A stretch of DNA of 64,000 nt from Candidatus Aerophobota bacterium (GTDB lineage Bacteria; Aerophobota; Aerophobia; Aerophobales; JAGGXI01), in the NCBI GenBank assembly GCA_021163155.1, contig JAGGXI010000038.1, positions 7,731-71,730 on the forward strand, written 5' to 3'. Below the pieces are notes generated by a model, which saw nothing but the letters and a program-made list of their open reading frames with translations, was not told the origin of the DNA and made no database searches. Made by a program: the position numbers and the translations under genes. Numbering within the stretch: position 1 is the first letter of the stretch; each line of letters opens with the position of its first letter. Below, in pieces: positions 19,471 to 58,837 of the stretch.

Positions 19471-19514
19471 ATGTGTAGGTTTATTTAAGGGAGAGGAAGA
19501 GCGGAAAAGGTTTA

Positions 19515-19575
19515 TTAGCCTCCCCTACCCAGGCCAAGCACTCTAACAGTTTGCCGAATCTGGGTTAAATATATC
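19515..19575. repeat. family-A REP-like element (inverted orientation) downstream of eno
   Basis: 'agcctcccctacccaggccaagcactctaacagtttgccgaatctgggtt' is the reverse complement of the copy at 27568 and 31746. Confidence 0.75.
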
Positions 19576-27525: not shown

Positions 27526-27567
27526 ATATCGAAGTTAAAGCTGTTAAAATATTCATATTTATCATAG

Positions 27568-27792
27568 ATTTGGCAAACTATTAGAGTGCTTGGCCTGGCT
27601 ATTGGAAAACCAATAAACCTCTTCCACCCTTCCTCTCCCTTAAGGGGGGTATAACCCTCACCTTAGTCCTCCCCCGTAAAGGGAGAGGGGAAGCGGAAGA
27701 AGTTCTGCTGGGTGAGGGTGAGGGTGACCCAGCCTCCCAATAGCCTCTAACTCTTGTTTTGCAAAGGGTGATTGAAGTCGCCCTACCCATTA
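27568..27792. repeat. full-length composite family-A REP-like element with a GC-rich internal hairpin
   Basis: It contains both arms ('tggcaaactattagagtgcttggcctgg' ... 'cagcctcccaatagcctctaactcttgttttgcaaa'). The ORF 27599..27790(-) lies inside it and is spurious. Confidence 0.8.
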
Positions 27793-31746: not shown

Positions 31747-31872
31747 ACCCAGATTCGGCAAACTGTTAGAGCGCTTAGTCTGAGTAGAGGAGGCCAATAA
31801 ATTTCTTCCGCTCCCTTGAGGTGAGGATTGTGTTTTAGCTAATATTATTCAAATTGCTGAATCCAGGTTTAA
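31746..31872. repeat. family-A REP-like element downstream of the dehydrogenase
   Basis: 'cccagattcggcaaactgttagagcgcttagtctg...ggccaataaa...ttagctaatattattcaaattgctgaatccaggttt'. Confidence 0.75.
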
Positions 31873-38495: not shown

Positions 38496-38523
38496 AATTT
38501 ACCCCCTTTTTTATTTTGAATTT

Positions 38524-38628
38524 CAACCTGCATTCGGTAAACTGTTAGAGTAATTAGGCTGGGTAGGGAAGGCCAATAAACCTCTTTTCCTCATTTACTC
38601 ATCCACCCATTTACCCATCTGCCCAGAG
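38524..38628. repeat. family-A REP-like element between the hypothetical gene and ispG
   Basis: 'cattcggtaaactgttagagtaattaggctgggtagggaaggccaataaacctc...cacccatttacccatctgccc'. Confidence 0.7.
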
Positions 38629-40944: not shown

Positions 40945-41050
40945 ACCCACTTGTGGGTAGACTAATCGCCCTTTATAAAACAAGAGTTAAAAAGCGATTG
41001 GGAGGCTAAAGCCTCCCCCTACCCAGGTGGAGAACTTTAATGAGCTCATC
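40945..41050. repeat. family-A REP-like element (core GGGAGGCTAAAGCCTCCCCCTACCC)
   Basis: It is near-identical to 12822-12913. Confidence 0.8.
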
Positions 41051-41149
41051 TAATTACCAAACAAGAGTTGTTTTAGAATTTGTTTAGGGTTTAGTATTTT
41101 AATTTAATTTAATTTATATACTAATTTAAAATTGTCAAAATTTTTTAAG

Positions 41150-41250
41150 GAGGCCTTTCTTACACAGATTATTAAAAATGATTACAGCAATTTAACAAGG
41201 ATAATCTAATTTGTGTAATTTGGACTTCTATCTGCGAAATTAAAGATTTA
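41150..41250 (-). repeat. family-C repeat (inverted orientation)
   Basis: The reverse complement matches 42530-42625 ('aaatct.t.atttcgcagata.aagtccaaattacaca..' plus 'gtaatcattttaa.aatctgtgtaa'). Confidence 0.7.
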
Positions 41251-41269
41251 TCCCTTTAGAAAGAATTCT

Positions 41270-41500
41270 TTAACAGGATTTACCAGATTCTATCTTCCCC
41301 AATTTAGAAAAAATCTCTGCCTTACCTCTAATTTTTACGGCAGATATATCTCTGGTGAATTGACAAATCCAGACCTCGTCTTTGTCTAACTTTTCTGTAT
41401 GGTGAATTACGGTCTCTTTGCCTCGAGTTAAGCCTATAATAGTTACAGAATCTTCTAATGCTTTTACTACAATAAAATCGGCTAACTCTGCCTCTTCCAC
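41270..41500 (-). CDS. hypothetical small protein
   Basis: The product is 76 aa with no motif recognised. Coding status is uncertain. Confidence 0.3.
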   Translation of the reverse strand: MEEAELADFIVVKALEDSVTIIGLTRGKETVIHHTEKLDKDEVWICQFTRDISAVKIRGKAEIFSKLGKIESGKSC

Positions 41501-41589
41501 TTTATATTCACCTCTCTCCTTAAATACTTTTGATTTATCTTCGGTTAAATAATAATACAGTTTTTAATTTAGGTCAACTATGACAAATT

Positions 41590-41616
41590 GGGGGTCAGGT
41601 CTCAACATTTGACATT
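41590..41616 (+). repeat. GGGGTCAGGTCTCAACATTTGACATTT motif (left inverted copy flanking eamA)
   Basis: It is the reverse complement of 42842-42869. Related copies lie at 53949 and 56600. Confidence 0.7.
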
Positions 41617-41618
41617 TC

Positions 41619-42488
41619 TTATCCCCATATTCCTACTAAAAATACTCCTGCAAATATTGCAGTCATGCCTAAAAACGAACTTTTAGTAGGTTTTTCTTTT
41701 AAAAATAGAATACTGAGAAAAAAAGCAAACAATACTACAAGTCCTCTAATGGGAGACAATAAACTTGCTCGTTCTATTTTTAAAGCTGATAACCAAAAAA
41801 TCCAACCAATAAAGGAGCCGAAGAATCCAGATAAAATAGCTACTTCTACTCCTTTTATAGAACACTTAAGCCTTCTTTTAGCTCGACTGATTAATCCTGT
41901 GAGACCCCAAGCAATACTAATCACAACCATTAAAATAAATTGATATGCAAGGGGGTCCATTCCGTGATTAAAGCAGTATTTAGTAGGAATAACCTCAGCT
42001 ATCCCCCAAATAAGGCCTGCGGAAAGAGCCAGGATAGACCCCAATTTTGGGGTATAAAAACAGTTCTCTTCTCGTTTAGTGAGAAGATATGCTCCCCAAA
42101 CTACCAGAAAAGCCGAGAGAAATACCACAAATTTTGCTTCTTCACCCAAAAGTAGTATTGCAGCAGAAACTCCCCAGAAAGGGGCAGTATTTGCCAAAGA
42201 TGTGGCTTTGTGAACTGCAATTTTACTTATAGCGATAAGGTACAGCATCTCGCCAATAAATGAATCTAAGAATCCCCCTATAATGGCAATCAGAATAAGT
42301 TTAGGTTCAGGAAAGTCTAATCCTCCGCTTAACAAAACATAGGGAATGAAGAAAAGTAATCCAAAGAGACTTCTAATAGTCGCATAAACTGCAATATCTG
42401 TATCTCTTAAGGCAATTTTATTTATAACTAAAGATATTGCCCAAAATAGAGATGCTCCTGCGGCAAGCACAATAGGCAATGGGTTCAT
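41619..42488 (-). CDS. EamA/DMT-family transporter
   Basis: A 289-aa protein with 10 TM helices and two EamA repeats. Confidence 0.8.
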   Translation of the reverse strand: MNPLPIVLAAGASLFWAISLVINKIALRDTDIAVYATIRSLFGLLFFIPYVLLSGGLDFPEPKLILIAIIGGFLDSFIGEMLYLIAISKIAVHKATSLANTAPFWGVSAAILLLGEEAKFVVFLSAFLVVWGAYLLTKREENCFYTPKLGSILALSAGLIWGIAEVIPTKYCFNHGMDPLAYQFILMVVISIAWGLTGLISRAKRRLKCSIKGVEVAILSGFFGSFIGWIFWLSALKIERASLLSPIRGLVVLFAFFLSILFLKEKPTKSSFLGMTAIFAGVFLVGIWG

Positions 42489-42503
42489 TAGTATCTCCTC
42501 TGT

Positions 42504-42650
42504 TAGAGATTTCTAGAAAAGTCAAAAATCTCTGATTTCGCAGATAAAAGTCCAAATTACACAGATAAATTATTCTTACTAAATCAGTGTAATCATTTTA
42601 AAAATCTGTGTAATCAGAAGCCTCTGGAGATTTTTCAGAGGTCTCCTGAT
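42504..42650 (+). repeat. family-C repeat, long copy
   Basis: 'gagatttctagaaaagtcaaaaatctctgatttcgcagataaaagtccaaattacacagat...gaagcctctggagatttttcagaggtctc'. Confidence 0.8.
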
Positions 42651-42728
42651 AAATGGTTTGGTATCCTGATATTATAAAACTACTTTACTGTATATATCAG
42701 AAAAACAATTTTTATCAAATTGAGCTAT

Positions 42729-42826
42729 TTTGAGATTTCTAGAAAAGTCAAAAATCTCTGATTTCGCAGATAAAAGTCCAAATTACACAGATCAAAGGAC
42801 TCTGGAGGTTTTTTTAGAAGCTTCTT
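42729..42826 (+). repeat. family-C repeat (tandem second copy, about 225 bp after the first)
   Basis: 55 bp are identical to 42504-42570. Confidence 0.8.
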
Positions 42827-42841
42827 ATTTTATAAAATGTT

Positions 42842-42869
42842 AAATGTTGAGACCTGACCTCTATTCTCT
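42842..42869 (-). repeat. GGTCAGGTCTCAACATTTAACATTT motif (right inverted copy flanking eamA)
   Basis: It is the reverse complement of 41590-41616. Confidence 0.7.
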
Positions 42870-42880
42870 TAAATTTAAAT

Positions 42881-42915
42881 TTGACATAAAGATAGCTTTT
42901 GATAGGATTAGGGAC
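42881..42915 (+). promoter_or_regulatory. candidate sigma70 promoter TTGACAtaaagatagcttttgaTAGGAT for metG
   Basis: The hexamer spacing is appropriate and it lies 40 bp upstream of the metG start. Confidence 0.35.
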
Positions 42916-42953
42916 AAGCAAAAACAGGATTAAAGAGAGCAAAGGAAGAGAAG

Positions 42954-44489
42954 TTGAAAAAAAATTTTTATATTACCACTCCTATATACTATGTTAATGA
43001 CATCCCTCATTTAGGGCATGCGTATACTACTATAGCTGCTGATGTTTTAGCAAGATATAAACGCTTAAGAGGATACAATGTATTTTTTCTTACAGGAACC
43101 GATGAACATGGAGATAAGATTGCCCGAACAGCAGAAAAAAAGGGGATCAGTCCTCATGAGCTTACAGATAAGGTAGTAATTAGATTTAAAAACCTCTGGA
43201 AAGAACTTTATATTTCTAATGACGATTTTATTCGAACTACTGAATTTCGACACATTGAAGCTGTAAAAGAAGTTTTCTTGAAATTATATAAACAAGATGA
43301 TATCTATAAGGGAAAATATAAGGGATGGTATTGCATTTCCTGTGAAAGTTTTTGGCTGGAATCTCAACTAAAAGAAGGAAATCTTTGCCCAGAGTGTGGA
43401 CGAAAAGTAGAGAAAGTGGAGGAAGAGAGTTATTTTTTTCGACTCTCTAAATACCAAAAAAAACTATTGGAGCATTTTGAAAAAAATCCCAATTTTGTCT
43501 TACCTCCTACTCGCAGAAATGAGGCAATAAAATTTATTAAAAGCGGATTGAAAGACCTTAGCGTCACCCGTTTAAAATTAAATTGGGGTATACCCTGCCC
43601 CATCCAAAAAGAACATACCATTTACGTGTGGGTTGATGCACTACTCAATTATATTTCTGCTATAGGATATCCTTTTGGAAAGGAAAAATTCTCCTTCTTT
43701 TGGCCTGCAGATGTTCAGATAGTTGGCAAAGACATCTTAAAGTTTCATGCTATAATCTGGCCCTCTATTTTAATGGCTTTAGGTTTAAAACTTCCCAAAA
43801 TAGTTTTTGCTCATGGTTGGTGGAAAGTAAATAACGAAAAAATGTCAAAATCAAAAGGTAATGTAATCGATCCCAAAGAGATAACAGAAAAATATGGAGT
43901 CGATCCTCTTCGTTACTTTCTTCTTAGAGAACTTCCTTTTGGAGGAGATGGAAGCTTCTCTACATTTTTATTTATCAAGCGGGTAAATAGCGACCTGGCA
44001 AATAATTTAGGGAATCTACTCAATAGAACACTTCCTTTGGTAATAAAGTATTGCGATAGCAAAGTTCCTTACCCTGATAAAGAAAATAACGATGAAATAG
44101 GAATAAAGAAGAGAGCAGAAGAAATCATTTCTCAATTAGATGAGATGATGAATACTCTCTCCTTTTCCAAAGCTCTCTCTTTAATCTGGGAAATAGCAAA
44201 ATTAACTAATTTGTATATAAATAAGTCCGCACCCTGGAGTTTGGCTAAGGATAAAAGCAAAGAAGGAGAATACCGCACAGTTTTATATAATGTTTTGGAT
44301 TCCTTGCGGATAATTACCATTCTTGTCTTCCCTTTTATTCCCCAATCAGCAAAAAAGATGTGGAATCAATTGGGGATTGAAGAAGAGCTGGAAAAGCAAA
44401 TTTTGGATGAAGAAAGTATTAAAAAAGGAATAATCCCAGGAACAAAGATAAAAAAAGGACCTCCTCTTTTCCCTCGTATTGAAGAATAG
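42954..44489 (+). CDS. metG: methionyl-tRNA synthetase
   Basis: 'HLGHAYT' (HIGH) and 'KMSKSKGN' (KMSKS) motifs plus a Zn-knuckle are present. Length is 511 aa. Confidence 0.9.
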   Translation: MKKNFYITTPIYYVNDIPHLGHAYTTIAADVLARYKRLRGYNVFFLTGTDEHGDKIARTAEKKGISPHELTDKVVIRFKNLWKELYISNDDFIRTTEFRHIEAVKEVFLKLYKQDDIYKGKYKGWYCISCESFWLESQLKEGNLCPECGRKVEKVEEESYFFRLSKYQKKLLEHFEKNPNFVLPPTRRNEAIKFIKSGLKDLSVTRLKLNWGIPCPIQKEHTIYVWVDALLNYISAIGYPFGKEKFSFFWPADVQIVGKDILKFHAIIWPSILMALGLKLPKIVFAHGWWKVNNEKMSKSKGNVIDPKEITEKYGVDPLRYFLLRELPFGGDGSFSTFLFIKRVNSDLANNLGNLLNRTLPLVIKYCDSKVPYPDKENNDEIGIKKRAEEIISQLDEMMNTLSFSKALSLIWEIAKLTNLYINKSAPWSLAKDKSKEGEYRTVLYNVLDSLRIITILVFPFIPQSAKKMWNQLGIEEELEKQILDEESIKKGIIPGTKIKKGPPLFPRIEE

Positions 44490-45329
44490 ATGAAATTAAG
44501 AGATAAGGTAGAGTACCTTTGGTATAAATACAATTTCACTCCTAGAAGAGACTTAGGTCAAAATTTTCTCATTGACTCTCACATAGTTGAAAAAATAGTG
44601 GACACTATTAAACCCGATAAAAAAGATACAATCTTGGAAATAGGAGCAGGAACAGGGGTCTTAACAGAAAAATTAGTTAAAAAAGGGGGGAAAGTAATTG
44701 CTGTGGAAATAGATAAAAACCTGGGAGAGGCATTAAAGAAAGAATTTAAAGAATATTTAAACTTAAAGATAATTTGTGGAGATATAACACAAATATCCTT
44801 TGATGAAGAGTTTAAGCAAGCAAAGTCGGTTAAATTAGTAGGAAATCTACCTTATTACATAGCTTCCCTAATTTTATTGGATATGATTAAAAAAGATTGG
44901 GTTAAATTTATGGTAGTAATGGTACAAAGAGAGGTGGCAGAAAAACTTTTAGCTAAACCAGGAAATAAAAAAAGAGGAAGATTAACTGTTTTAATGAACT
45001 ATTACGGGCAAGGAGAAAAAATAATTGATATTCCTCCTCAAGCCTTTACTCCTCCTTCTAAGGTCGGGGCAACTCTGCTTAAAATAGAAAAAAGGGAGAG
45101 ATGCAAGTTAAAAGATGAGAACAACTTTTTCTCTGTAGTGAAAGCAGCTTTCTCTTTGCGGCGCAAAATGATTACAAATTCCTTAAGTAAAGAATTAGGA
45201 ATAAATAAAGACTCAATTAAAGAAAAATTAGAAAGTATAGGAATAGATTGGAGAAAGAGGGCGGAAGACTTAACAGAGGAAGAATTCATCAGCATAAGCA
45301 ACAATTTAGGAGTAAAAAATGCCCATTAA
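44490..45329 (+). CDS. rsmA: 16S rRNA (adenine1518/1519-N6)-dimethyltransferase
   Basis: 'GQNFL' and 'EIGAGTGVLT' motifs are present in a 279-aa product. Confidence 0.9.
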   Translation: MKLRDKVEYLWYKYNFTPRRDLGQNFLIDSHIVEKIVDTIKPDKKDTILEIGAGTGVLTEKLVKKGGKVIAVEIDKNLGEALKKEFKEYLNLKIICGDITQISFDEEFKQAKSVKLVGNLPYYIASLILLDMIKKDWVKFMVVMVQREVAEKLLAKPGNKKRGRLTVLMNYYGQGEKIIDIPPQAFTPPSKVGATLLKIEKRERCKLKDENNFFSVVKAAFSLRRKMITNSLSKELGINKDSIKEKLESIGIDWRKRAEDLTEEEFISISNNLGVKNAH

Positions 45330-46359
45330 TACTATAGAATGGATAGATAGCCAAATTAAAATTATTGACCAGACTCTACTTCCTCAAAAGCTAAAATATA
45401 TTTATTGCAAAGATATAGAGAGTTTAAAAAAAGCAATAGTTTCTCTTAAAATAAGAGGAGCTCCAGCTTTGGGGATAGCTGCGGCCCTGGGAATAGTCCT
45501 GGAAATGAAGAAATCTTCTGCTAAAGATTACTCCCACTTTAAAGAAGAGCTGGAAGATACGATAAGCTATATAGGTTCTTCTCGTCCTACAGCAGTAAAT
45601 CTTTTTCGGTCCTTAAAAAGGATGCATAATTGTATGGAAAAAAATAGGAAGAAAAAAATAGAAAAAATTAAAGAGGCTTTAGAGAAAGAAGCTCTCCAAA
45701 TTATAGAAGAAGATAAAAGATGTAATCGTCTAATAGGGAAAAAGGGGGCCTCTCTCATTAAAGATGGAGATACTATTCTTACCCATTGCAATGCTGGAGC
45801 ATTAGCCACCGCTGATTATGGAACTGCTTTAGGAATTATTTATAGAGCTAAAGAGGAGGGAAAAAGAGTCAGGGTTTATGTTGATGAGACAAGACCTCTT
45901 CTTCAGGGAGCAAGATTGACTACCTGGGAACTTTTAAAAGAGGGAATTGAAACCACACTTATATGCGATAACATGGCAGGTGAGGTGATGAGAGAAGGAA
46001 AAATTGATAAGATTTTAGTGGGAGCGGATAGGATAGCCGCCAACGGAGATACAGCTAATAAAATAGGAACTTATACTTTAGCTGTCCTGGCAAAAGAGAA
46101 TAGAATCCCTTTTTATATAGTCTCTCCTTTATCAAGCATTGATTTATCCTTACCAAAAGGAGAAGAGATCCCTATTGAACAAAGAGATAAAAATGAAGTG
46201 ATAAAAGGATTGGGGAAAGTTATCGCCCCTGAAGAAGTTAAAGTTTATAATCCCGCTTTCGATATAACCCCCGCTAAATATATTAAAGGTATAATTACAG
46301 AAAAAGGAATATATAGGTCTCCTTACAAAAAGAGTTTAAAAAATTTAGGAGGAAAATAG
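45319..46359 (+). CDS. mtnA: S-methyl-5-thioribose-1-phosphate isomerase / eIF-2B-like family
   Basis: 'GADRIAANGDTANKIGTY' is present in a 346-aa product. Confidence 0.8.
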   Translation: MPINTIEWIDSQIKIIDQTLLPQKLKYIYCKDIESLKKAIVSLKIRGAPALGIAAALGIVLEMKKSSAKDYSHFKEELEDTISYIGSSRPTAVNLFRSLKRMHNCMEKNRKKKIEKIKEALEKEALQIIEEDKRCNRLIGKKGASLIKDGDTILTHCNAGALATADYGTALGIIYRAKEEGKRVRVYVDETRPLLQGARLTTWELLKEGIETTLICDNMAGEVMREGKIDKILVGADRIAANGDTANKIGTYTLAVLAKENRIPFYIVSPLSSIDLSLPKGEEIPIEQRDKNEVIKGLGKVIAPEEVKVYNPAFDITPAKYIKGIITEKGIYRSPYKKSLKNLGGK

Positions 46360-46361
46360 AT

Positions 46362-46664
46362 ATGAAAAAGATTATAGATAAAGAACAAACAAGATATATT
46401 GCTCATTTAGCAAGACTAAAATTAAGTAAAGAGGAAGAGAAAAAATTTACTAAACAACTAAGAGATATCTTATCTTATGTAGATAAATTAAAAGAAATAG
46501 ACACTAAAAATATTCCCCCCACCTCTCACATTATTCCTCTTAACAATGTGTTTAGAGAAGATAAAAAAAGAGACTCTTTACCTTTAGAAAAGGTTTTATC
46601 CAACGCTCCTCAGCAAAAACGGAAATATTTTCAAGTTCCCAAAATAATTGATATAATAGGTTAA
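46362..46664 (+). CDS. gatC: Asp/Glu-tRNA amidotransferase subunit C
   Basis: The 100-aa product has the 'IAHLARLKLSKEE' GatC N-terminus. Confidence 0.8.
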   Translation: MKKIIDKEQTRYIAHLARLKLSKEEEKKFTKQLRDILSYVDKLKEIDTKNIPPTSHIIPLNNVFREDKKRDSLPLEKVLSNAPQQKRKYFQVPKIIDIIG

Positions 46665-47147
46665 TCACTTCTTTTTTTTTATGCCTTCTTTTATTATGAA
46701 AATAGGTAAGACTAAAAGAGAATTATAAAGAGAGGAAAGAAAAACAAGAAAAGTTAAATGAGTTCGTGAAAAAGAAGAGATGTGAAAAATTGAGGAAAAA
46801 GAAATAAGGAGAAATCCATTAAGAATAGTAGATAAGCACATAATAATGAGAAGAAGTATTAAATTCTCTTCATAAACTTTCTCTCTTATTTCCCCAACAA
46901 GAAAACCAACTATACACAAGGTAAATGCATTTACACCCCAAAGAGGAAAAAAGAGAACATCTTTTAAAATGCCTATTATAAAACCAGATATTACCCCTTG
47001 CCTCCATCCATTATACCAAGCCCATAAAACAAGTAAGATTAAAAAAAGGTCGGGGCTGCCCCTTTTAATTTGAAATCCTCCTATCAAAGTAATCTGGAGA
47101 ATAAGAATGACTAAAAATAAAATAATAAATATAATTGCTTTCTTCAT
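46665..47147 (-). CDS. mreD: rod shape-determining protein MreD
   Basis: A 160-aa polytopic protein directly downstream of mreC. Confidence 0.7.
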   Translation of the reverse strand: MKKAIIFIILFLVILILQITLIGGFQIKRGSPDLFLILLVLWAWYNGWRQGVISGFIIGILKDVLFFPLWGVNAFTLCIVGFLVGEIREKVYEENLILLLIIMCLSTILNGFLLISFSSIFHISSFSRTHLTFLVFLSSLYNSLLVLPIFIIKEGIKKKK

Positions 47148-47959
47148 TCTTCTATCTTTATAATGAATAACTCCTCTAATTTTCTAAAATCTACATAAGG
47201 AGTTACTTCTACATATTGGAATAATTGGTGAGGATTCTTCTTTATCAGAGAAATTTCTCCAACAAGAATCCCTTTAGGGAAAATTCCTCCTAATCCAGAG
47301 GTTATTATCTTATCTCCTACTTTAACGGATACTTTATTGGGCAGGTATATCAATTCACATTTTTCCTCCTCACCCTTACCTTGAAGGATAGCTATATCTC
47401 TAGTTTTTTCATCCCGAACCCCTACCTTACTTCTTTTATCAAGAATTGATAATATTTTAGCCTGATGAGGATAAATCTCAATTATTCTTCCTACTAACCC
47501 CTGAGCATTAACTACCACCATATTTTTCTTTACCCCTTCTTTACCACCCTTCCCAATAAAAATGGTATCAAAATAGCTAAAAGGAGAATAAGCTATAACT
47601 TCTACAGGTATAAGATTAAATGCTTGCCTCTTTTTAAACTCAAGCGTTCTCTTCAATTTATCATTATCGGAAAGGATATGGCGGTAATAATTTTCTTGCT
47701 GGAAAGTGAGCTTATTAACCTTCTCCTTAAGCATCTGATTTTCTTTTCTTAATTTTTTGGCTTCATAAATATTCCCTATAGACTCGGTAAGCTCTGTTTT
47801 GAAATTAAAGAAGCATCTCTGGAAAGATTCCACAAAGAAATAACTCCTCTCTTTCACTTCAATGGGTAGGTCTCTTTTATAGTTAGAAACTAATATTAAA
47901 ACAAAAGATATAAAAAGAAAACTAATTAAAAAAATTGTCTTTGAACCAATTTTTCCCAA
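47144..47959 (-). CDS. mreC: rod shape-determining protein MreC
   Basis: An N-terminal TM helix and coiled coil are followed by a C-terminal beta domain. It lies between mreB and mreD. Confidence 0.85.
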   Translation of the reverse strand: MGKIGSKTIFLISFLFISFVLILVSNYKRDLPIEVKERSYFFVESFQRCFFNFKTELTESIGNIYEAKKLRKENQMLKEKVNKLTFQQENYYRHILSDNDKLKRTLEFKKRQAFNLIPVEVIAYSPFSYFDTIFIGKGGKEGVKKNMVVVNAQGLVGRIIEIYPHQAKILSILDKRSKVGVRDEKTRDIAILQGKGEEEKCELIYLPNKVSVKVGDKIITSGLGGIFPKGILVGEISLIKKNPHQLFQYVEVTPYVDFRKLEELFIIKIEE

Positions 47960-47979
47960 TTCTTGCTCACTTTATTTAA

Positions 47980-48073
47980 ACTCAGATTCGAAAAAGTTAA
48001 AAATCTCTGATTTCGCAGATAAAAATCGAGATTACACAGATTGAGGCCTTTGGAGGTTTTTCAGAGGCCTCTA
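47980..48073 (+). repeat. family-C repeat in the mreB-mreC intergenic region
   Basis: 'aaatctctgatttcgcagataaaaatcgagattacacagattgaggcctttggaggtttttcagaggcctc'. Confidence 0.8.
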
Positions 48074-48103
48074 ATAAATTACCAAATCTGGATAAACATA
48101 ATT

Positions 48104-49138
48104 TCAATAAGGAGTTATTTCTACCGAGGATAAAATATCGGGGTTATCCAATAGCTTCCCTGTCCCTAAAGCTACTGAAAGAAGAGGGTCGGAAGCTAAT
48201 TTTACTGGAAGGTGTATTCTCTGATATAGATATTTATCAAAACCTTTAATACAGGATCCACCACCTGTAAGATATACTCCCCCCCGTCTTACATCTCCAG
48301 CAAGATCTGGAGGACACTTTTCTAAAACAGCTTCTACCATCTCACAAATTGCATTAATCACCGGCGAAAGAGCTTCTCCTATCTCCTCCGAATTTACTTC
48401 CATCTCTACAGGAAAGCCTGTGTTTAAATCTCTTCCATCTATTTTCATCTTCTCTTCCTTGGGAGGAGGATAAATACATCCTATCTCTATCTTTATTTTT
48501 TCCGCCATCTGTTCCCCGATAAGCAAAGCATGCTTTTCCTTTAAATAATGGATTATGGCCTCTGTCATCTCATCACCAGCTACTCGAATAGAATCGCTAA
48601 CTACTATACCATTCAAGGAGACTATTGTCGTTTCACTGGTTCCTCCCCCGATATCTACCACCATACTGCCTGACGGCTTAGATATAGGTAGATTTATTCC
48701 AATAACAGCGGCTACAGATTCAGCCACAAGGTGAACTCGTCGCGCTCCTGCAGCCATTCCCATATCCATTGCTGCTCTCTTCTCCACTTTAGTTGCACAA
48801 GAAGGAATACCAATTACAAGGCGAGGTCCAATTAAAACACGGTGAGGCAAAACATGGGAAATAAAATATTTAACCATCTTTTCTGTGATATCAAAATCAG
48901 CGATCACTCCATCCTGAAGAGGTTTAATAGCCAAAATATTTTGAGGAGTCTTGCCTATCATCTCCTTAGCTTCTTTTCCTATGCCTACAATTTCCCCATT
49001 CCCTTGACTAACAGCCAACACAGAAGGCATATTTAAAACAATTCCTTTCTTTTGAGCATAAATTAAAGTATTAGTAGTCCCTAAATCTATTCCCAAATTG
49101 TTTCCGAATATTCTAAAGCTAAAGATATCTTTAAGCAT
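48104..49138 (-). CDS. mreB: rod shape-determining protein MreB (actin-like ATPase)
   Basis: 'IDLGTTNT', 'VVDIGGGTSE' and 'LTGGG' motifs are present. Confidence 0.95.
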   Translation of the reverse strand: MLKDIFSFRIFGNNLGIDLGTTNTLIYAQKKGIVLNMPSVLAVSQGNGEIVGIGKEAKEMIGKTPQNILAIKPLQDGVIADFDITEKMVKYFISHVLPHRVLIGPRLVIGIPSCATKVEKRAAMDMGMAAGARRVHLVAESVAAVIGINLPISKPSGSMVVDIGGGTSETTIVSLNGIVVSDSIRVAGDEMTEAIIHYLKEKHALLIGEQMAEKIKIEIGCIYPPPKEEKMKIDGRDLNTGFPVEMEVNSEEIGEALSPVINAICEMVEAVLEKCPPDLAGDVRRGGVYLTGGGSCIKGFDKYLYQRIHLPVKLASDPLLSVALGTGKLLDNPDILSSVEITPY

Positions 49139-49248
49139 AATAGTCTCTCTTCTTCCTTACTATATTATATTATATCTGCATAGAAAGAGAAAGTCAAATT
49201 TGCAAAATTTGAAAATAGATATATAATGCTAAAAAAGAGGAGATTATA

Positions 49249-51111: not shown

Positions 51112-51402
51112 TCGGGTGACAGCGCCTCTTTGTACTCTTAACTTTACCTTATCCTCTACTTCTATTTCTAAATAATTTTTCTTAACATTAGTAACAGTTC
51201 CATATATTCCCCCGGTGGTAATTATCTTATCTCCCTTCTTCAAACTTTCTACCATTTGTCTATGTTCTTTCTGTTTCTTCCTTTGAGGAAGGATGAGAAG
51301 AAAGTAAAAAATAACAAAGATAAGAACAAGAGGCATTAAAGATCCAATCATTCCTCCTGCTCCTCCTGTTTGCCCATTAGCAGCCCATGCAATAGCATTC
51401 AT
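51094..51402 (-). CDS. yajC: preprotein translocase subunit YajC
   Basis: A 102-aa protein with a single TM helix, upstream of tgt as in many bacteria. Confidence 0.8.
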   Translation of the reverse strand: MNAIAWAANGQTGGAGGMIGSLMPLVLIFVIFYFLLILPQRKKQKEHRQMVESLKKGDKIITTGGIYGTVTNVKKNYLEIEVEDKVKLRVQRGAVTRLRGEE

Positions 51403-51407
51403 TTCTT

Positions 51408-52529
<1,122 letters not shown>

Positions 52530-52618
52530 TTATTTTAGAATCAAGAAAACCCATTTTGTTCCCTTTAATCCTGCTTTTCCTTGACCGTATCAGGAAATTA
52601 TACCTATAATCTACTACT

Positions 52619-52660
52619 GAGGGTATTTCCCTGAAGAAGCCTTATAGGAGCTACCTTAAC
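52619..52660. repeat. partial family-A-associated motif 'gggtatttccctgaagaagccttatagga'
   Basis: It matches 7447-7480 ('gggtatcaagggattttccctgaaggagccttataag'). Confidence 0.5.
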
Positions 52661-52756
52661 GAGAAGACGAGCAGAAACAATTCAAAGCAGATATACAGCG
52701 ACGAAAGGGAATACCCAAAATCTTCTTGATATATAATATCAGGAATATAAAGGAAG

Positions 52757-53782
52757 TCAAATTATGAGCATTGCATCTCCGAAGGAGAGGAAACGATATT
52801 TTTCCTTTATTGCTTCCTTGTAAGCGGCAAGCAATTTTTCCTTACCCACAAAAGCAGATACTAATAGAATAAGTGAGGTCCCTGGCATATGAAAGTTGGT
52901 AATAAGGGAATCCACTATCTTAAATCTATATCCCGGATAAATGAACAGCTTTGTCCATCCCTCTCCCTCCTCAATTAAACCAGTAGATTTAGCCTGTGTT
53001 TCCAGAGCTCGAGTAGCACTGGTTCCTACAGTTACCACTCTTCTCGCTTCCCTAATAATCTTAGCTGCTTTAGCCTCAATTTTATAAAATTCCTCTGGAA
53101 TTTGATTCTCTTCCACTATTTCTTTATTTAAACGCTTAAAGCTGGCCCATCCGGTATGCAATGTCACCTCTACTATTTTCACCCCTTTATCTTTTATTTT
53201 TTGCAATAAAGAAGGGGTAAAATGGAGTCCTGCTGTGGGAGCAGCAATGGCTCCTCCCTCTTTAGCATAAACAGTTTGATATCTTTCTCTATCTTCGGGG
53301 CTGGGGCATCCTTCCCTTTTGATATAAGGAGGAAGAGGAACCTGACCAATCTTCGCTATAACTCTATTTAATTTGCTTGGAGGAGTAAATTTAACTACTG
53401 CCTTTGCTCCTTCACCCTTCTTTAATATATATGCTTTAAGTTCTGTCTCCGGGAAAAAAATTGAACTATCTTCTCTTATGCTCTTAGCCGGTTTCAGTAA
53501 ACATTCCCAAATATCTTCCTCTTTTTTCTTTAAAAGAAGAACTTCAGCTTTGCCTCCCGTAGTTTCTTTTTTTCCTTTCAATCGAGCAGGTATCACATAT
53601 GTATTGTTTAATACCAATACATCCCCTTCCTGGAAATAATGCAGAATCTCATAAAATCTTTTATGCTCTATTTCCCCCTTTTCTCTGTGAAGCACCAAAA
53701 GACGAGACTCATCCCTTTGGGGAGCTGGATATTGAGCAATTAATTCTCCTGGAAGCTGATAATAAAAATCTTTTAACCTCAA
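52757..53782 (-). CDS. queA: S-adenosylmethionine:tRNA ribosyltransferase-isomerase
   Basis: 'LPPYI' and 'TVGTSATR' motifs are present in a 341-aa product. Confidence 0.9.
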   Translation of the reverse strand: MRLKDFYYQLPGELIAQYPAPQRDESRLLVLHREKGEIEHKRFYEILHYFQEGDVLVLNNTYVIPARLKGKKETTGGKAEVLLLKKKEEDIWECLLKPAKSIREDSSIFFPETELKAYILKKGEGAKAVVKFTPPSKLNRVIAKIGQVPLPPYIKREGCPSPEDRERYQTVYAKEGGAIAAPTAGLHFTPSLLQKIKDKGVKIVEVTLHTGWASFKRLNKEIVEENQIPEEFYKIEAKAAKIIREARRVVTVGTSATRALETQAKSTGLIEEGEGWTKLFIYPGYRFKIVDSLITNFHMPGTSLILLVSAFVGKEKLLAAYKEAIKEKYRFLSFGDAMLII

Positions 53783-53948
53783 CTGATTTTCCTTTATTCT
53801 TTTCTTTTAAAATTACCAATAATTACTCATTGGTCAAGAAGATTTCTAGCTTTCCCCTCCATCGCTGTCCATTACGAGTAAATGGGTAAATGAGTTAATT
53901 GGACAAACTTTGTACTATTTTTTGTAGTTTCTTTACTTTTTCCTCATA

Positions 53949-53975
53949 TGGGTCAGGTCTTCAAACTTGACATAA
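53949..53975 (+). repeat. GGGTCAGGTCTTCAAACTTGACATAAA motif (left boundary of the accessory island) with an adjacent hairpin
   Basis: A direct copy lies at 56600. It is followed by the inverted repeat gtcttcaaacttgacataaat...atttatgtcgaagac. Confidence 0.65.
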
Positions 53976-54114
53976 ATATTAATTTATGGTAATGATAATT
54001 TATGTCGAAGACCATTAAGAATTTCCCATCCAGGCGCCCTTTATCATATCAGTACAAAGCATAAGGAATACAGTAGCCGCGGCAGACATCGACGTCACAA
54101 GAATTCCATCAAAA

Positions 54115-54714
54115 TTGGAAGCGCGAAGTGGACTTGGAAGCCGCGCTGAAGTTATACCAGCCATAGATAAACTTTTTGGCGAGTTATACAAAGACGCTCA
54201 AGAAAACGCACTTTGCATAATTGCGGAATGTTTAATAGCAGAAAGCCCACAATTGGCCGAAAGCGTACAAGAAATTCTTGGAAAAGACGGTTATCAATTC
54301 ATTGATGGTTCATTTGTTCCTGTTGGTTTACTAGATCAAAGAGAGGCCAAGTTCTTGCCTATAAGCTCAGCCACCGAGATTGCTAGAGCTACCTCTCGAT
54401 TAATTAATGGTGATTACAGCGGCGCAATAACATCAGCATGTGGTGCCGTCGATATCGTAATGCAGTAAATCTATAAAGAGCAAGGCCTGGGCGAAGCAGG
54501 TAAAGCCTCCTTTCAGGCTAAAGTGAATACTGCTGCTAAGCAATTACGCCTATTTGAAGCAATGGAAAGCGAATTTCGGAAAGTAGGCATGCCTGAAAAG
54601 GATACATCGGAATTAGTAAAGGAAATGAAAAGTGCCACTAACCATGCAGCACAGGCGTTACAAGTCTTGAGGCGTGCTATGGGAGACACCCATGGCATCT
54701 CTAAGATACAATAG
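54115..54714 (+). pseudogene. GC-rich ORF of unknown function interrupted by an in-frame TAA (54466-54468); the C-terminal segment carries a HEPN-like 'RAMGDTHG' (Rx5H) motif
   Basis: ORFs 54115..54468 and 54523..54714 are in the same frame and separated only by the stop. The frame is also open upstream to 54019 with no start codon there. Confidence 0.4.
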
Positions 54715-54958
54715 CCAGGGATTCTCTAATTCTTCTTTAGTCACAAAACGCCATTTACCGCTATCTTCCAAAACTTTTGTATTCTCATCCAGCAAAGAGT
54801 ATAGAACGATAGTCCTAAAAACACTTCCCAGTCTTCTTACCCACCATTTGTGAATAAAGTAAATCGGCGGTATTTTTCCTTGGCGTGGGCTTCCCGTTCC
54901 GCAATTTCGTTAACCTGTTCAATAGGGAAATCTATTTTTATAGGTCTTTGTTTCACTT

Positions 54959-55351
54959 TTATTCCTCTATTGCCTTTGCGACAATTTCATCTATAACTTT
55001 AATGAATTCCTCAGCTTTCTCAAGCCAGGTCTTGATATCTTCCTTGTTGAATTCAACAAAGTCTTCATAATCTCCCCTTTGCCTGAATTCAAACATTTTA
55101 TTGTAAAAATCTCCGAATTTTTCCCCAACAACACCTGCCTTTACAAATTCTCTATTAAATAAGCTCCTTATTCCACTGTGTTTTGAAGAATAAAGATCCT
55201 TTGTTAGAAGAAGTGCAACAGATTCATAAAAGATGGCATAATATATTCTGTTGACAGTGGCAAACAGTTTTGAATTATCAAACATTATCTTTGCTTCTTC
55301 AAAGGTCTCTTTGGCTCTCTCCCTCCTGTAGTTGATAATTTTCTCTTTCAT
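54959..55351 (-). CDS. HEPN-domain protein (toxin component of a HEPN/MNT pair)
   Basis: The 130-aa product has an 'RQRGDYEDF' Rx4-6-type motif region. Its start overlaps the MNT gene stop by 4 bp. Confidence 0.75.
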   Translation of the reverse strand: MKEKIINYRRERAKETFEEAKIMFDNSKLFATVNRIYYAIFYESVALLLTKDLYSSKHSGIRSLFNREFVKAGVVGEKFGDFYNKMFEFRQRGDYEDFVEFNKEDIKTWLEKAEEFIKVIDEIVAKAIEE

Positions 55352-55695
55352 TTAACAGGCACTCCTTCTTTGTCAATATTCCAGTGAATGGGCATAGCTT
55401 TTGCCAATGGTGATTTCCAGAAGTTGGTAGCTTCTATAAGGATTCCAAATACGACATTGTACTTTAACTCTATTCTGAAGCTCATACTGAAAATCTTTTC
55501 TCTTAAACTGTCATTGACATCACATTCAAGTAGAATTAATACATCAATATCCGATTCCTCATCAAAATCTCCTCTTACCTTAGAACCGTAAAGAATGACC
55601 CCAGCATCTGGGAATCTTTCCAGCACTCTTTTTTTTAACTCCTGTAAAGCTTTTTTCTCATTTTCTTTTAATTTCAACTCTTCTACATTCTTCAT
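55348..55695 (-). CDS. minimal nucleotidyltransferase (MNT, pol-beta superfamily; antitoxin/AMPylase component)
   Basis: 'YGSKVRGDFDEESDIDVLIL' matches the GSx9-13Dx[DE] motif. Confidence 0.85.
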   Translation of the reverse strand: MKNVEELKLKENEKKALQELKKRVLERFPDAGVILYGSKVRGDFDEESDIDVLILLECDVNDSLREKIFSMSFRIELKYNVVFGILIEATNFWKSPLAKAMPIHWNIDKEGVPVK

Positions 55696-56150
55696 TTTCT
55701 TACCTCAATCATCGGAACAAAGCATTCCATCAAACTTAATCCACCATGAAAATATATACTGTATTTTCCCGGTACAGGCCATATATATCGGGATTTCACA
55801 AGATAATAACCAGAAAAATCTACAACATAACCATCTTGCACCAGATGAGAAGCATCTGCTTGATTCATAGAGATGTATCTATTGCTGCCAAAAACATCCC
55901 TTAAAGCTCTCTTCTTGTTATCCGGAACTGGGAAAGCAAATCCAGCTTCTGAACGAATATACCCATGGTCAGATAGAATTATAATCTTGCTGGTTTTAAG
56001 TTTAGTTGCCAATTCCATCACGATTTTTTCTGTAGTTTCATGCATATTCTCAAGAGATGAGATTACAGTATGCCCTACCTGAATTTTGTCCAGCAAACAA
56101 TCCGGAAAATAAGACCAGATATATTTTTCCCTACCCGTAATCCTTATCAT
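55692..56150 (-). CDS. short alkaline-phosphatase-superfamily protein resembling the C-terminal part of a PglZ domain
   Basis: 'ILSDHGY' and the C-terminal 'HGGLSLMECFVPMIEV' fit the PglZ family. The protein is only 152 aa, bounded by a stop immediately upstream. Its start overlaps the MNT gene by 4 bp. Confidence 0.4.
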   Translation of the reverse strand: MIRITGREKYIWSYFPDCLLDKIQVGHTVISSLENMHETTEKIVMELATKLKTSKIIILSDHGYIRSEAGFAFPVPDNKKRALRDVFGSNRYISMNQADASHLVQDGYVVDFSGYYLVKSRYIWPVPGKYSIYFHGGLSLMECFVPMIEVRK

Positions 56151-56185
56151 TTAAATCAATTTTTATTTACTATTTTCATATTGTA

Positions 56186-56413
56186 TTATTTCTCCTCTGG
56201 AATATACACAAGTAACTCACCAACGGAGCAATTTAAAGCCTTGCAAAGTTTTTCGAGAACCTCGTAGGTTACCTGTTTTGCACCTGTGCCACCATTTTTC
56301 CCCATCTTGGAGAGAGCATTAATAGAAATACCTGTCCTCTTGCTTAACTGGGTGTAATTCAGGTCTCTCTCAGCTAAAAGTATCTTTAATCTATTTTTTA
56401 TCATTTTTTCCAT
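56186..56413 (-). CDS. XRE/Cro-C1-type HTH transcriptional regulator
   Basis: 'LSKRTGISINALSKM' forms the HTH. It is the first gene of the minus-strand operon. Confidence 0.8.
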   Translation of the reverse strand: MEKMIKNRLKILLAERDLNYTQLSKRTGISINALSKMGKNGGTGAKQVTYEVLEKLCKALNCSVGELLVYIPEEK

Positions 56414-56599
56414 CCCTAAGTAACTTTTTTATATTTAAAATTTGGATATTTACAATGAGAAATGTATAAAACCACTTGACAAGTATAAACGGATATGGCA
56501 AAATTACAATAGTAGATGTAAATAATTAACTTACAAAATGATTATATACACTAACTATTATAATCCAAATATTTCCTGAGTCAATATTTTCTTAGTATA

Positions 56600-56616
56600 G
56601 GGTCAGGTCTTCAAGA
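56600..56616 (+). repeat. GGTCAGGTCTTCAAGAG motif (right boundary of the accessory island)
   Basis: Direct copy of the motif at 53949. Confidence 0.6.
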
Positions 56617-58075
56617 GGCCTGTTCTCTTATTGAACTCTTTAATTAGTTTATCTATTTTACCAACTTGTTTATGAATATTACCCCAATAGTCTTCACAAT
56701 CATACCATTGAGCATTTAACTCATCCAATTCTTTACCCTGCTGTTCTATCCAGGTGTAGTATTTAAGGTTATGAATTCGTTTTTTATCATAATAAGTTAA
56801 CTCTTCCATATAATCAGTAGATAACCCAAGTAAATGTTGGTGATAGTCAACAGCAGCATCTATCTTGCCATATGAATTATTATATTCTTCTTCCATTTCT
56901 TTTAATCTTGATTTATAAAGCTCCATAGAATCTGTAAATACAGTCATAACTATATCATTCTTAGTTAATTCATAATACTTAGCAAACTTAATAGCCATTA
57001 TTACATTAGCCGCACTGGAAATACCTAATAAAGGCAACTGTTCAATTAATCTCTTAGAAACATTCATTTCTTTTAAATAATCTTTGCCAGCGGGTTCATT
57101 AAATACCCGCACCAGTCCCATGCTATCATTATCATCAACATCAATTATCATATCGGTATTCTTTACATTGTGAATCCAGGGTACGTGTTTGTCACCAATA
57201 CCTTCAATCCTATGAGCACCATAACCATTAGATAATAAAGTTGGACACTGCAGGGCTTCACCAACAACAATTTTACTGGTTGGATACAACTCTTTTAAGT
57301 AATCTCCGCATCCTAAAGTACCTGAAGAACCAGAAGTTAAAACAACTCCGGCATATTTATCATCTGGACCCATTACCTCTTTTAAAACTTCTTCCATAGC
57401 ATGACCGGTAACTTCATAATGCCAGAGATGATTACCAAATTCATCAAACTGGTTAAATACTACTACATTATCTCTTGTTTTTTTTAATTCCCAGGATTTG
57501 TCAAAAATCTCTTTTACGTTGCTTTCACTTCCAGGAGTAGCAATAACTTCTCCTGCCACTTTAGTTAGCCAGTCAAAGCGTTCTTGACTCATCCCTTCGG
57601 GTAAGATAGCAATTGATTCACAGGATAATAAATCAGCATCATAAGCACCGCCCCGACAATAATTACCTGTAGAAGGCCAAACTGCCTTATGAAAAGTAGG
57701 GTCAAATTGTCCAGTAATCAGTCTGGGTACTAAACAACCAAAGGTAGCTCCAACCTTATGAGAGCCGGTTGGAAACCATTTACCCACTAAAGCAATGATT
57801 TTAGCGTCAACTCCTGTAAGTTCTTTGGGTAATTCTATATAATTGACTCCACTATACAAACCACCATTTTTCACTGGTTCATTTTTCCAGGTAACCCTGA
57901 AAAGATTATATGAATTAATGTCCCATAACCCTATATTTTTAAGTTTATTTTTAATCCTATCAGGAACAAGTTCAGGATTCTCCATCTCCTCAAAAGTGGG
58001 AATGATAATATTCTTCTCTTTAGCTCTTTTTATTGTCCTTTCAAGTTGTTCTTCATTAATAGTTAAATCAATCAT
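56603..58075 (-). CDS. PLP-dependent enzyme, fold type II (tryptophan-synthase-beta/threonine-synthase-like) with a roughly 100-aa N-terminal extension
   Basis: 'FPTGSHKVGATFG' is the PLP-lysine motif (compare ThrC PTGSFKDR). Length is 490 aa. Confidence 0.6.
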   Translation of the reverse strand: MIDLTINEEQLERTIKRAKEKNIIIPTFEEMENPELVPDRIKNKLKNIGLWDINSYNLFRVTWKNEPVKNGGLYSGVNYIELPKELTGVDAKIIALVGKWFPTGSHKVGATFGCLVPRLITGQFDPTFHKAVWPSTGNYCRGGAYDADLLSCESIAILPEGMSQERFDWLTKVAGEVIATPGSESNVKEIFDKSWELKKTRDNVVVFNQFDEFGNHLWHYEVTGHAMEEVLKEVMGPDDKYAGVVLTSGSSGTLGCGDYLKELYPTSKIVVGEALQCPTLLSNGYGAHRIEGIGDKHVPWIHNVKNTDMIIDVDDNDSMGLVRVFNEPAGKDYLKEMNVSKRLIEQLPLLGISSAANVIMAIKFAKYYELTKNDIVMTVFTDSMELYKSRLKEMEEEYNNSYGKIDAAVDYHQHLLGLSTDYMEELTYYDKKRIHNLKYYTWIEQQGKELDELNAQWYDCEDYWGNIHKQVGKIDKLIKEFNKRTGLLKT

Positions 58076-58399
58076 TTTTCATACTCCTCATTTATTTTAA
58101 AAAGTCTCAAAGCCCTGATTATATGTTTCTCTTGAATTCGCTTCTATACTTTATTCATTCATTATTTTATAGCAAGACCTTCTTTTTTCTTACCGTTTAC
58201 TTTACTGTCTCCTTCAGATTTTAACTTTATTTTAATAAAAATCCAGTAGATTGACAACCAACTTTTATAGAAAATTCATCTTATTAGATTTTTAGAATAT
58301 TTAGAATATTTTGAAATCCGTAATATTTGCATTAACAACGATCCATATAAGAAGAGAAAGATTAATTTCAAAATCACAGATTCCACATTTAGGGTATGG

Positions 58400-58600
58400 T
58401 TACCTTTGTAGCATCTGAGTTTGCGCTACAAAGGACGGTAGCCGCAACCTTTACCCCGCTAAATAGTAGTAACATCTAATGGGGTTTAGGTTGTGCTGTT
58501 TTACGCAGGTGGTAGCCGCAACCTTTAGGTTGCGCAAAGAAGACCGTTACACAATAATGCAGGCTCTGAGCCTCGCGGCTACCATTTTTCCTGCAAAAGA
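58400..58600 (+). ncRNA. candidate structured 5' leader RNA or riboswitch upstream of gspE (GC-rich, nested hairpins, ends in a hairpin plus T-tract)
   Basis: - The 17-mer GGTAGCCGCAACCTTTA occurs twice, at 58439 and 58512.
- A hairpin cctttgtagc/gctacaaagg is present.
- A 9-bp outer stem ggtagccgc...gcggctacc is followed by 'atttttcc'.
- GC content is well above the local background. Confidence 0.35.
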
Positions 58601-58686
58601 TAGCTGACAAATGGTATTAAAGCTATTTACAAGCAAAAAATAGATAAACACAAGACTTATTTTTCTTAATTCTTAGTTTTAAATTA

Positions 58687-58783
58687 TTGAGATTTCTGAA
58701 AAAATCAGAAATCTCTGATTTCGTAGATAAAAATCGAGATTACACAGATTAGAGGCCTCTGAAGGTTTTTCAGAGATCTCTTA
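58687..58783 (+). repeat. family-C repeat immediately upstream of gspE
   Basis: 'gagatttctgaaaaaatcagaaatctctgatttcgtagataaaaatcgagattacacagattagaggcctctgaaggtttttcagagatctc'. Confidence 0.8.
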
Positions 58784-58837
58784 TTGTCAGGTTGACGAAA
58801 ACTTCTATTATAATATTATATAAAAGAAAGGGCAATC

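Follow-up and report, generated by a model that had tools for sequence, protein, structure and literature searches.

Intergenic repeats in a Candidatus Aerophobetes genome as probable copies of a promoter-homing miniature transposable element

Introduction

Are short, hairpin-forming repeats scattered between the genes of an uncultivated bacterium RNA signals, or are they mobile DNA? The question is raised by a 64,000-nt stretch of a Candidatus Aerophobota bacterium genome (assembly GCA_021163155.1, contig JAGGXI010000038.1, positions 7,731 to 71,730 of the forward strand; the whole stretch is called the window below, and its first letter is position 1), in which five copies of one repeat lie between 41 and 59 kb. 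The preliminary description of this DNA offered a list of interpretations: a small RNA (sRNA), a terminator or attenuator, an RNase processing signal or a MITE (miniature inverted-repeat transposable element). The MITE part of that list was upheld by the present analysis and the RNA parts gained no support. We read the repeats as copies of a non-autonomous DNA transposon, a MITE, that homes to promoters in a Candidatus Aerophobetes genome, and put the probability of this reading at about 0.82.

Results

Architecture of the Element

The five copies are real and lie essentially where they had been placed, with their limits now refined. A 34-nt degenerate core gave five matches at ≤3 mismatches in the window, with 0.00 expected from 100 shuffles of it, and neither blastn with short words nor two nhmmer profiles revealed a sixth copy in the 64 kb. 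Both hairpins (5′ and 3′) and the core were borne out as described, as was the intergenic position of all five copies, the neighbours of which were confirmed by Pfam (AccD, an EamA transporter, MetG, MreB/MreC/MreD and a T2SS-E/PilB-type ATPase). The window copies are 82–95% identical to the consensus; they are old and partly decayed. The host assignment agrees with NCBI protein records, in which Candidatus Aerophobetes is named for an MreC identical to that of the window and for a PilB with 87% identity.

The design of the element could be recognized because fresh copies in a sister species are nearly identical. A scan of public metagenome contigs with the core motif returned 23 loci from two JGI metagenomes, 3300001749 and 3300027742, which represent a sister species with about 87% DNA identity to the window. 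They hold about 30 copies, 97–100% identical to one another and placed at unrelated sites, and in many of the 23 loci the core match lies at a contig end. The sister species underwent a recent burst of element activity.

The full element, of about 141 nt, consists almost wholly of two imperfect terminal inverted repeats (TIRs), or arms, which extend to about 60 nt (5′ GAGATTTCTGAAAAAG-TCAGAAATCTCTGATTTCGCAGAT compared with the reverse-complemented 3′ end, GAGGCCTCTGAAAAACCTCCAGAGGCCTCTGATTACACAGAT). The left arm reads GAGATTTCTGAAAAAG-TCAGAAATCTC-TGATTTCGCAGAT-(9)-GATTACACAGAT and the right arm, as its reverse complement, GAGGCCTCTGAAAAACCTCCAGAGGCCTC-TGATTACACAGAT-(10)-GATTACACTGAT. A terminal palindrome (GAGnnnTCTGAAAAA-loop-CAGAnnnCTC) opens each arm, and after it a GATTACAC(A/C)GAT-like motif occurs twice, at spaced positions; we regard these motifs as putative transposase-binding sites. 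The inner right arm is missing from a short form of about 92 nt, and some copies stop at the first CAGAGGCCTC. The 5′ and 3′ hairpins of the preliminary description are the two termini of the element, each palindromic, and its “core” is the inner left arm; the longer copies at 41150 and 42506 represent the complete form of the element and not copies bearing an insert. Folded as single-stranded DNA, the element forms three hairpins at −35.6 kcal/mol (z = −10). The elements are small (64–190 nt), multicopy and dispersed, and have no open reading frame (ORF). Neither this anatomy, with the target-site duplications (TSDs) that accompany it, nor the fixed spacing to −35 boxes had figured in the preliminary description.

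Target-Site Duplications and Empty Sites

Direct repeats of at least 5 bp abut 14 of the 21 complete Aerophobetes copies (5 bp in ten, 6 bp in two and 7 bp in two), compared with 3.1% of mismatched flank pairs used as the control (p ~ 7e-17). The sequences of these TSDs are variable and AT-rich, with a mode of 5 bp. Among 55 copies from other phyla, exact 5-bp TSDs were found in 24 and 6-bp TSDs in two.

The clearest comparison of an occupied and an empty site comes from the mreB–mreC spacer, which is 144 nt long in the window versus 28, 28, 12 and 16 nt in four relatives (L032–L035) with MreC identity of 82–84%, among them the two metagenomes in which the element abounds at other loci. The difference amounts to a 111-nt insertion (47982..48092, + strand) flanked by TAAAC (left copy 47977..47981, right copy 48093–48097, + strand), and the relatives carry a single GTAAA/TAAAC-like site. 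The insertion is made up of a short-form copy (family homology 47990–48071; refined limits of the repeat 47981–48071, + strand) and 21 extra nt on the 3′ side.

Another short-form copy (58689..58780, + strand, from sequence and consensus alignment) stands upstream of the pilB/gspE-like ATPase gene between two copies of its TSD, TTATT (58684–58688 and 58781–58785). The pilB promoter, TTGACG-16-TATTAT (58792..58819, + strand, found by promoter scan), lies outside the element and starts 11 nt past its 3′ end. The same promoter is conserved with no element in front of it in L026 and L028 (90% PilB identity) and in L031 (87%). The exact empty site could not be defined here, as the intergenic DNA upstream of the promoter is unalignable between the species. 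A further relative, L036, lacks eamA together with both copies adjacent to it.

Altogether, the long TIRs, the 5-bp TSDs, the insertion polymorphism with clean empty sites, the near-identical copies of the sister species and the enrichment at contig ends strongly support the MITE alternative.

A discordant pair of loci was also seen. L012 (1251–1391) and L015 (3010–3150), from the two metagenomes, have the element and its 3′ flank in common (99.9% identity over 1391 nt), and their 5′ flanks are unrelated, each with its own TTGACA 11–12 nt away. This pattern reflects recombination between copies or an assembly chimera at the repeat.

Fixed Spacing between Insertions and Promoters

Among the 54 available flanks, TTGAC stood exactly 11 nt past the element end in 14 and at 12 nt in two more, the latter being those of the two copies whose duplications are 6 bp long. 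In non-ORF DNA of the same loci TTGAC had a background frequency of 0.0015 (p ~ 1e-27). Since the 11-nt distance goes with a 5-bp TSD and the 12-nt distance with a 6-bp TSD, the promoter-proximal edge of the TSD is fixed 6 bp upstream of the hexamer. In 10 cases it was the 3′ end of the element that faced the hexamer, in six the 5′ end. In the loci retrieved from the genome collection (see below), TTGAC was found at offset 11 in 22 of 107 ends and at offsets 10–12 in 32 (p ~ 1e-53). When all lineages were pooled, 58 of 189 distinct ends had TTGAC at 10–12 nt; 79% of these 58 were followed by a −10-like hexamer 16–18 nt further, versus 15% when every TTGAC site of that DNA was counted, and in 44 of the 58 a co-directional ORF started within 250 nt downstream. 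The targeted hexamers belong to real promoters.

The strongest single case is the accD promoter, TTGACA-16-TAAATT (41111..41138, − strand, found by promoter scan and conserved in L036), which lies outside the element. In the window it is the target of a decayed long-form copy (41150..41262, − strand; 82.6% identity to the long-form consensus, nhmmer E = 1e-25), whose 3′ end (GGCCTC, at 41150) faces the −35 box from 11 nt upstream and whose TSD is TTAAA. In L036 a short form with the TSD GAGTA turns its 5′ end to the same −35 box. Both copies are 11 nt from TTGACA, between conserved flanks, and the accD promoter was thus struck independently in the two species.

A symmetric target, TGTCAA-N6-TSD-N6-TTGACA, was not present in the reconstructed empty sites when these were inspected by eye, and TTGACA occurs on one side only, except at divergent promoters, e.g., in L084. 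At L023 the target TTGACC lies inside an apparent coding fragment and has no −10 hexamer, which is a single hint toward direct reading of the −35 DNA. At L011 (7115–7209 and 7282–7368) one sister-species copy is located 12 nt upstream of a tRNA gene promoter; the targeting therefore covers RNA genes too.

Distribution among Phyla and Covariation of the Termini

The scan of a genome collection with the core motif gave no matches. A second scan with the terminal motif only, TCTGAAAAA-N1-5-CAGA-NNN-CTCTGATT, for which about 1–2 chance matches were estimated, yielded more than 107 stretches of species-representative genomes among the matches listed. The core is specific to the lineage and the TIR motif alone is widespread. 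Genomes with many copies include those of contigs CAWHBU010000002.1 and CAVXWK010000001.1. The metagenome-assembled genomes (MAGs) among the matches listed were labelled Thermodesulfobacteriota, Syntrophaceae, Syntrophorhabdus, Deltaproteobacteria, Stahlbacteria, WOR-3, Omnitrophota, Ratteibacteria and Dehalococcoidales. Three stretches (L076, L080 and L112) look like chance matches; the remaining ones share the architecture at 64–190 nt, and their termini come in lineage-specific variants, which argues against binning contamination. The preliminary description had named a restriction of the copies to this one locus as a ground for refutation; instead, the repeats are spread genome-wide and across phyla.

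Positions 4–6 of the terminal stem carried both-sided changes in 24, 22 and 39 of 86 sequences, which none of 500 shuffles reached (89 both-sided cells versus 30.5 expected). The covarying triplet pairs were ATT/AAT, GCC/GGC, GTC/GAC, GTT/AAC, AGC/GCT and CGC/GCG, and the two ends of one element have different triplets. The covariation and the differing triplets together indicate that the hairpin, or palindrome, is kept as a structure and not merely as a sequence. Because the covarying hairpins are the very termini of the transposon, we read this as a need at the DNA level, in the recognition of the ends or their synapsis, where the DNA possibly adopts a hairpin or cruciform; alternatively, homogenization within the palindrome could have produced it. 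Such covariation is expected equally where the end of a transposon forms a hairpin or palindrome in the DNA, and we do not take it as evidence of an RNA gene. The changes within the window that had been called compensatory-looking are in fact single-sided mismatches or G–T wobbles.

In L043, L044, L051, L056 and L075 a perfect palindrome of about 21 nt (CCCTGCCTGCCGCAGGCAGGG and variants) is situated inside the arm after CTGATTACAC. It occupies the same position in several Thermodesulfobacteriota and Ratteibacteria MAGs and is a second palindromic element, smaller still, that is carried within the MITE.

Search for a Parent Element

A parent insertion sequence (IS) was sought by a TIR-based regular-expression search, and none was found in the window or in 147 loci. 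The candidate TIR pairs whose interiors were inspected (L057 4185–5712 and L106 1753–3493) enclose housekeeping ORFs. Of the other widely spaced pairs, those in L119–L147 were judged by their end sequences, and the family signature is wanting at one end at least of each. At L014 a 5′ terminus truncated to 35 nt (in the region 1–127) abuts not an IS but a 93-nt fragment, which matches 1653–1745 at 100%, part of a thioredoxin-reductase-like gene 1.6 kb off; this is a MITE-associated duplication or rearrangement. An all-versus-all blastp of 566 ORFs detected no transposase common to the loci. A scan of viral contigs gave two loci, which did not help in the search for the parent, and the plasmid and phage collections gave no match. 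The inverted repeats (IRs) of the ISKra4 group (supplement of PMC3942029) bear no likeness to the ends of the element. In the literature searched for the motif strings, for repeats of Aerophobetes and for promoter-targeting MITEs, the family is not described.

Copies around eamA and Other Repeats

The two copies near eamA complete the set in the window. The complete long-form copy of 140 nt (42506..42645, + strand; 92.5% identity to the consensus over its full length, nhmmer E = 3.6e-41) lies 17 nt upstream of the eamA start codon, between flanks that form an imperfect duplication, CTGTTA/CTGATA. The neighbouring short-form copy (42732..42824, + strand, delimited by sequence comparison and nhmmer) has a decayed 3′ end (TAGAAGCTTC). 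The segment with eamA (41619–42488) and these two copies (window 41580–42876) is absent in the approximately 87%-identical L036, where a TrpBP-like gene and metG are separated by back-to-back promoters only. The 1.3-kb eamA block is bracketed by a 42-nt inverted repeat of 79% identity (41576–41617 and 42835–42876), an arrangement suggestive of a cassette acquired on its own or of a hot spot for rearrangement.

At least two other families of dispersed short repeats, unrelated in sequence to the element, occur in the window in both orientations (about 45–70 nt, 80–91% identical; 19499–19572, 27555–27643, 31746–31813 and 38522–38586, and also 12845–12896, 27731–27773 and 40955–40989). A segment of about 170 nt at 58214–58391, about 300 nt upstream of the 58689 copy, recurs inverted 50 kb off at 7713–7881 with 95% complementarity over 95 nt. 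A GC-rich hairpin-like motif of 30 nt is common to 3487–3516 and 58559–58588. The 77-nt direct repeat 17283–17359/25813–25889 (88%), in which two TTGACA boxes occur together with an A10 run, resembles a promoter region that has been duplicated. The GC skew switches from about +0.2 (1–32 kb) to about −0.23 (32–40 kb), with a cumulative peak near 32 kb, which could mark a replication landmark or a change of gene orientation. Outside the window, a different perfect-hairpin repeat of about 140–170 nt with sub-threshold plant-miRNA matches in Rfam was noticed in a Thermodesulfobacteriota MAG (L039 2746–2915); it is probably another MITE.

Discussion

By all testable criteria, the parent aside, the repeat of this locus is a MITE. 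We propose that a putative transposase supplied in trans would cut the target with a mostly 5-bp stagger and so give rise to the 5-bp duplications. The target is not random: the promoter-proximal edge of the TSD falls 6 bp upstream of a sigma-70-type −35 hexamer (TTGACA), so that either end of the element comes to lie 11 bp from the −35 box, in either orientation. Insertions are thus placed in front of genes without disrupting them. The enzyme would presumably use DDE-type chemistry, bind the motifs repeated within the arms and recognize either the −35 DNA or promoter-bound RNA polymerase. The window copies represent old insertions and those of the sister species the recent burst, and, as the same design occurs in several other phyla, both belong to one lineage of a widespread superfamily.

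Several observations weigh against this reading. Neither the window nor about 190 kb of sister-species contigs nor 109 further loci yielded an autonomous element or a transposase with matching ends. Mobility is read from insertion patterns; transposition itself was not observed. A clean TSD is wanting in seven of the 21 complete copies, some of them recombinant or decayed, and the insertion at 47982–48092 has an aberrant 5′ tip besides its 21 unexplained extra nt. As to homing, only about a third of the ends adjoin TTGAC, which makes it a strong preference and not a rule, and the mreB–mreC copy is not at a promoter. Selection may add to the promoter-proximal distribution, yet it cannot explain the exact 11-nt spacing.

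If the repeats were small RNAs with a regulatory role, or RNA signals that act in cis (sRNA, attenuator or RNase site), and their hairpins were kept for RNA function, their strong structure (z = −10), the covariation of positions 4–6 of the terminal hairpin across the superfamily, the terminator-like match on one copy (58757–58775) and the placement of the 42506 copy, which would fall in the 5′ leader of eamA, would all be accommodated. We nevertheless consider this very improbable. The Rfam search that the preliminary description had recommended gave no match on the element, either in the window at the gathering score or, even at E ≤ 1, in five copy-holding loci. The 23 Aerophobetes copies, the three helices of which are 92% paired, displayed no covariation beyond shuffles (both-sided change in two pairs versus 1.2 expected; 173 of 500 shuffles equalled it), and in L021 both direct copies of the terminus were changed identically (GAGACCTC twice), which broke the pairing. 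Moreover, copies face either way with respect to the genes and promoters beside them, their insertion is demonstrated by TSDs and empty sites, and the hairpins occupy both DNA termini, as in transposon ends. The narrower notion of an intrinsic terminator was rejected: one of the four scanned copies only had a terminator-like match (the 47981 copy lay outside the scans), and the T-run sits in the loop and does not follow the stem. A host-recruited module upstream of promoters (an insulating terminator, a UP-like element or a palindrome bound by a transcription factor), kept at −47 by selection, would account for the exact position just upstream of bona fide promoters, for palindromic termini beside the −35 box and for an architecture conserved across phyla, and it could add to a MITE origin. 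It is an unlikely explanation of the repeats, since either end, with its different sequence, can face the promoter (10 versus 6 cases), near-identical copies with TSDs speak of recent insertion and not of ancient regulation, and orthologous promoters work without the element in relatives; the single-nucleotide precision, including the coupling of 6-bp TSDs to the 12-nt distance, is beyond what selection on random insertions would give.

Mobility by another route was considered as well. A Y1 (HUH) transposase can move hairpin-ended elements in single-stranded form, as with IS200/IS605-derived PATEs or the REP/REPIN–RAYT system. The palindromic termini, the covarying stems and the differing ends seen here (ATT/AAT versus GCC/GGC, AGC/GCT or GTC/GAC) agree with such a route, and the stem triplets suggest recognition that is structure-specific rather than sequence-specific. 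Those systems, however, make no TSD and insert beside a fixed target of 4–5 nt, whereas here variable 5-bp duplications lie on both sides and no conserved tetra- or pentanucleotide flanks the copies. The hairpins are terminal here and subterminal in PATEs and REPINs, and the long arm-to-arm symmetry of the TIRs is typical of DDE elements, which renders a Y1 origin highly unlikely. A simple local segmental duplication within this 18-kb region might seem natural with all five copies within 41–59 kb and two of them merely 86 nt apart, but it has practically no chance of being correct: about 30 copies lie at unrelated loci of the sister species and more than 100 loci are found in other phyla, the flanking sequences are unrelated, and every copy comes with a TSD of its own. 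The copies dispersed elsewhere refute it.

The promoter-homing MITE proposed here resembles the known bacterial MITEs (Neisseria Correia/NEMIS, pneumococcal RUP, enterobacterial ERIC/IRU, cyanobacterial Nezha and MITEAba12 (PMC6382973)) in its 90–190-nt size without an ORF, its TIRs and short TSDs, its many dispersed intergenic copies, its insertion polymorphism and its folding potential if transcribed. Unlike them, it has no sequence similarity in Rfam, plasmids, phages or the searchable literature and no known parent IS, and it is set apart by its fixed distance to the −35 box, its covarying palindromic termini and its occurrence in several phyla.

Promoter targeting has been described for Mutator-like DDE elements, namely the TnGBS integrative and conjugative elements, the ISLre2 family and the ISKra4 group, which target sigma-A promoters and are inserted 15–17 bp upstream of the −35 box with 8–9-bp repeats (Guerillot et al. 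2014, PMC3942029). The ISKra4 group and ISLbu1, both with near-symmetrical IRs, use both orientations, and promoter targeting was called atypical among prokaryotic transposable elements and was documented in two Mutator-like lineages (PMC3942029). The present family shares with these elements the fixed distance upstream of a sigma-70-type −35 box, a proximal TSD edge about 6–7 bp from it (11–5 here, about 16–9 there) and the terminal base (5′-G/3′-C), and with the ISKra4 group and ISLbu1 the insertion in both orientations. It differs in its 5-bp TSD and 11-bp distance, with no TSDs of 8–9 bp, and in its ends, as their IRs (e.g., GGGCGTAGCC... and GGGTGCATTT...) are unrelated to GAGATTTCTGAAAAAG. 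They are autonomous and 1.1–52 kb long, and no MITE derivative or Mutator-like transposase links them to the present family. Membership in these groups was rejected, as the TSD length departs from their defining feature and the IR sequences are unrelated. A looser parallel is offered by the eukaryotic retroelements Ty3/Ty1 upstream of Pol III genes, which likewise find a safe haven just upstream of transcription units, in a constant position with respect to the machinery of initiation (an analogy drawn in PMC3942029), although their chemistry (reverse transcription and an integrase), hosts and targets are different.

Elements with 5-bp duplications and several subterminal binding sites include the Tn3-derived inverted-repeat miniature elements (TIMEs) and the Mu/Tn7/Tn5053 group. 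The likeness extends to AT-rich 5-bp TSDs and long structured ends in which internal motifs recur and, for Tn7 and Tn5053, to insertion at a set distance from a recognized site or nucleoprotein complex. The ends are GAG...CTC here versus GGGG in Tn3 and TGT...ACA in Mu/Tn7, and, unlike in those systems, insertion is independent of orientation and no associated genes were found in our loci. A TIME has IRs of about 38 bp starting with GGGG and a 5-bp TSD; the length of the TSD fits, but the ends GAG(A/G) contain no Tn3-type IR, and this assignment was rejected. We know of no family in the ISfinder scheme that joins GAG...CTC ends with 5-bp duplications.

More tentatively, and at less than even odds, the repeats could form one branch of a superfamily of promoter-homing MITEs, so far undescribed and spanning several phyla, served by a novel transposase with a 5-bp stagger and GAG...CTC ends, outside the ISfinder families familiar to us, which would recognize the terminal hairpins and read the sigma-70 −35 box or the bound RNA polymerase. 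Promoter targeting would then have been invented in bacteria a second time, independently, and the transposase might represent a new family.

A MITE alone would be ordinary; what makes this family a worthwhile lead for specialists in mobile DNA is its precise homing with a new geometry, its covarying termini, its spread over several phyla and the transposase still to be found. Promoter-targeted transposition is rare in prokaryotes, and here the safe-haven strategy appears with a different cut geometry, in a tiny non-autonomous element and in at least six or seven lineages, mostly of uncultivated anaerobes. The missing transposase is a defined search target, and the sharp spacing gives a handle on how it would sense a promoter, as −35 DNA or as bound RNA polymerase. 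The copies also explain contig breaks and rearrangements in these MAGs. Finally, an element end plus 11 nt may serve as a marker for real sigma-70 promoters in phyla without experimentally mapped promoters.

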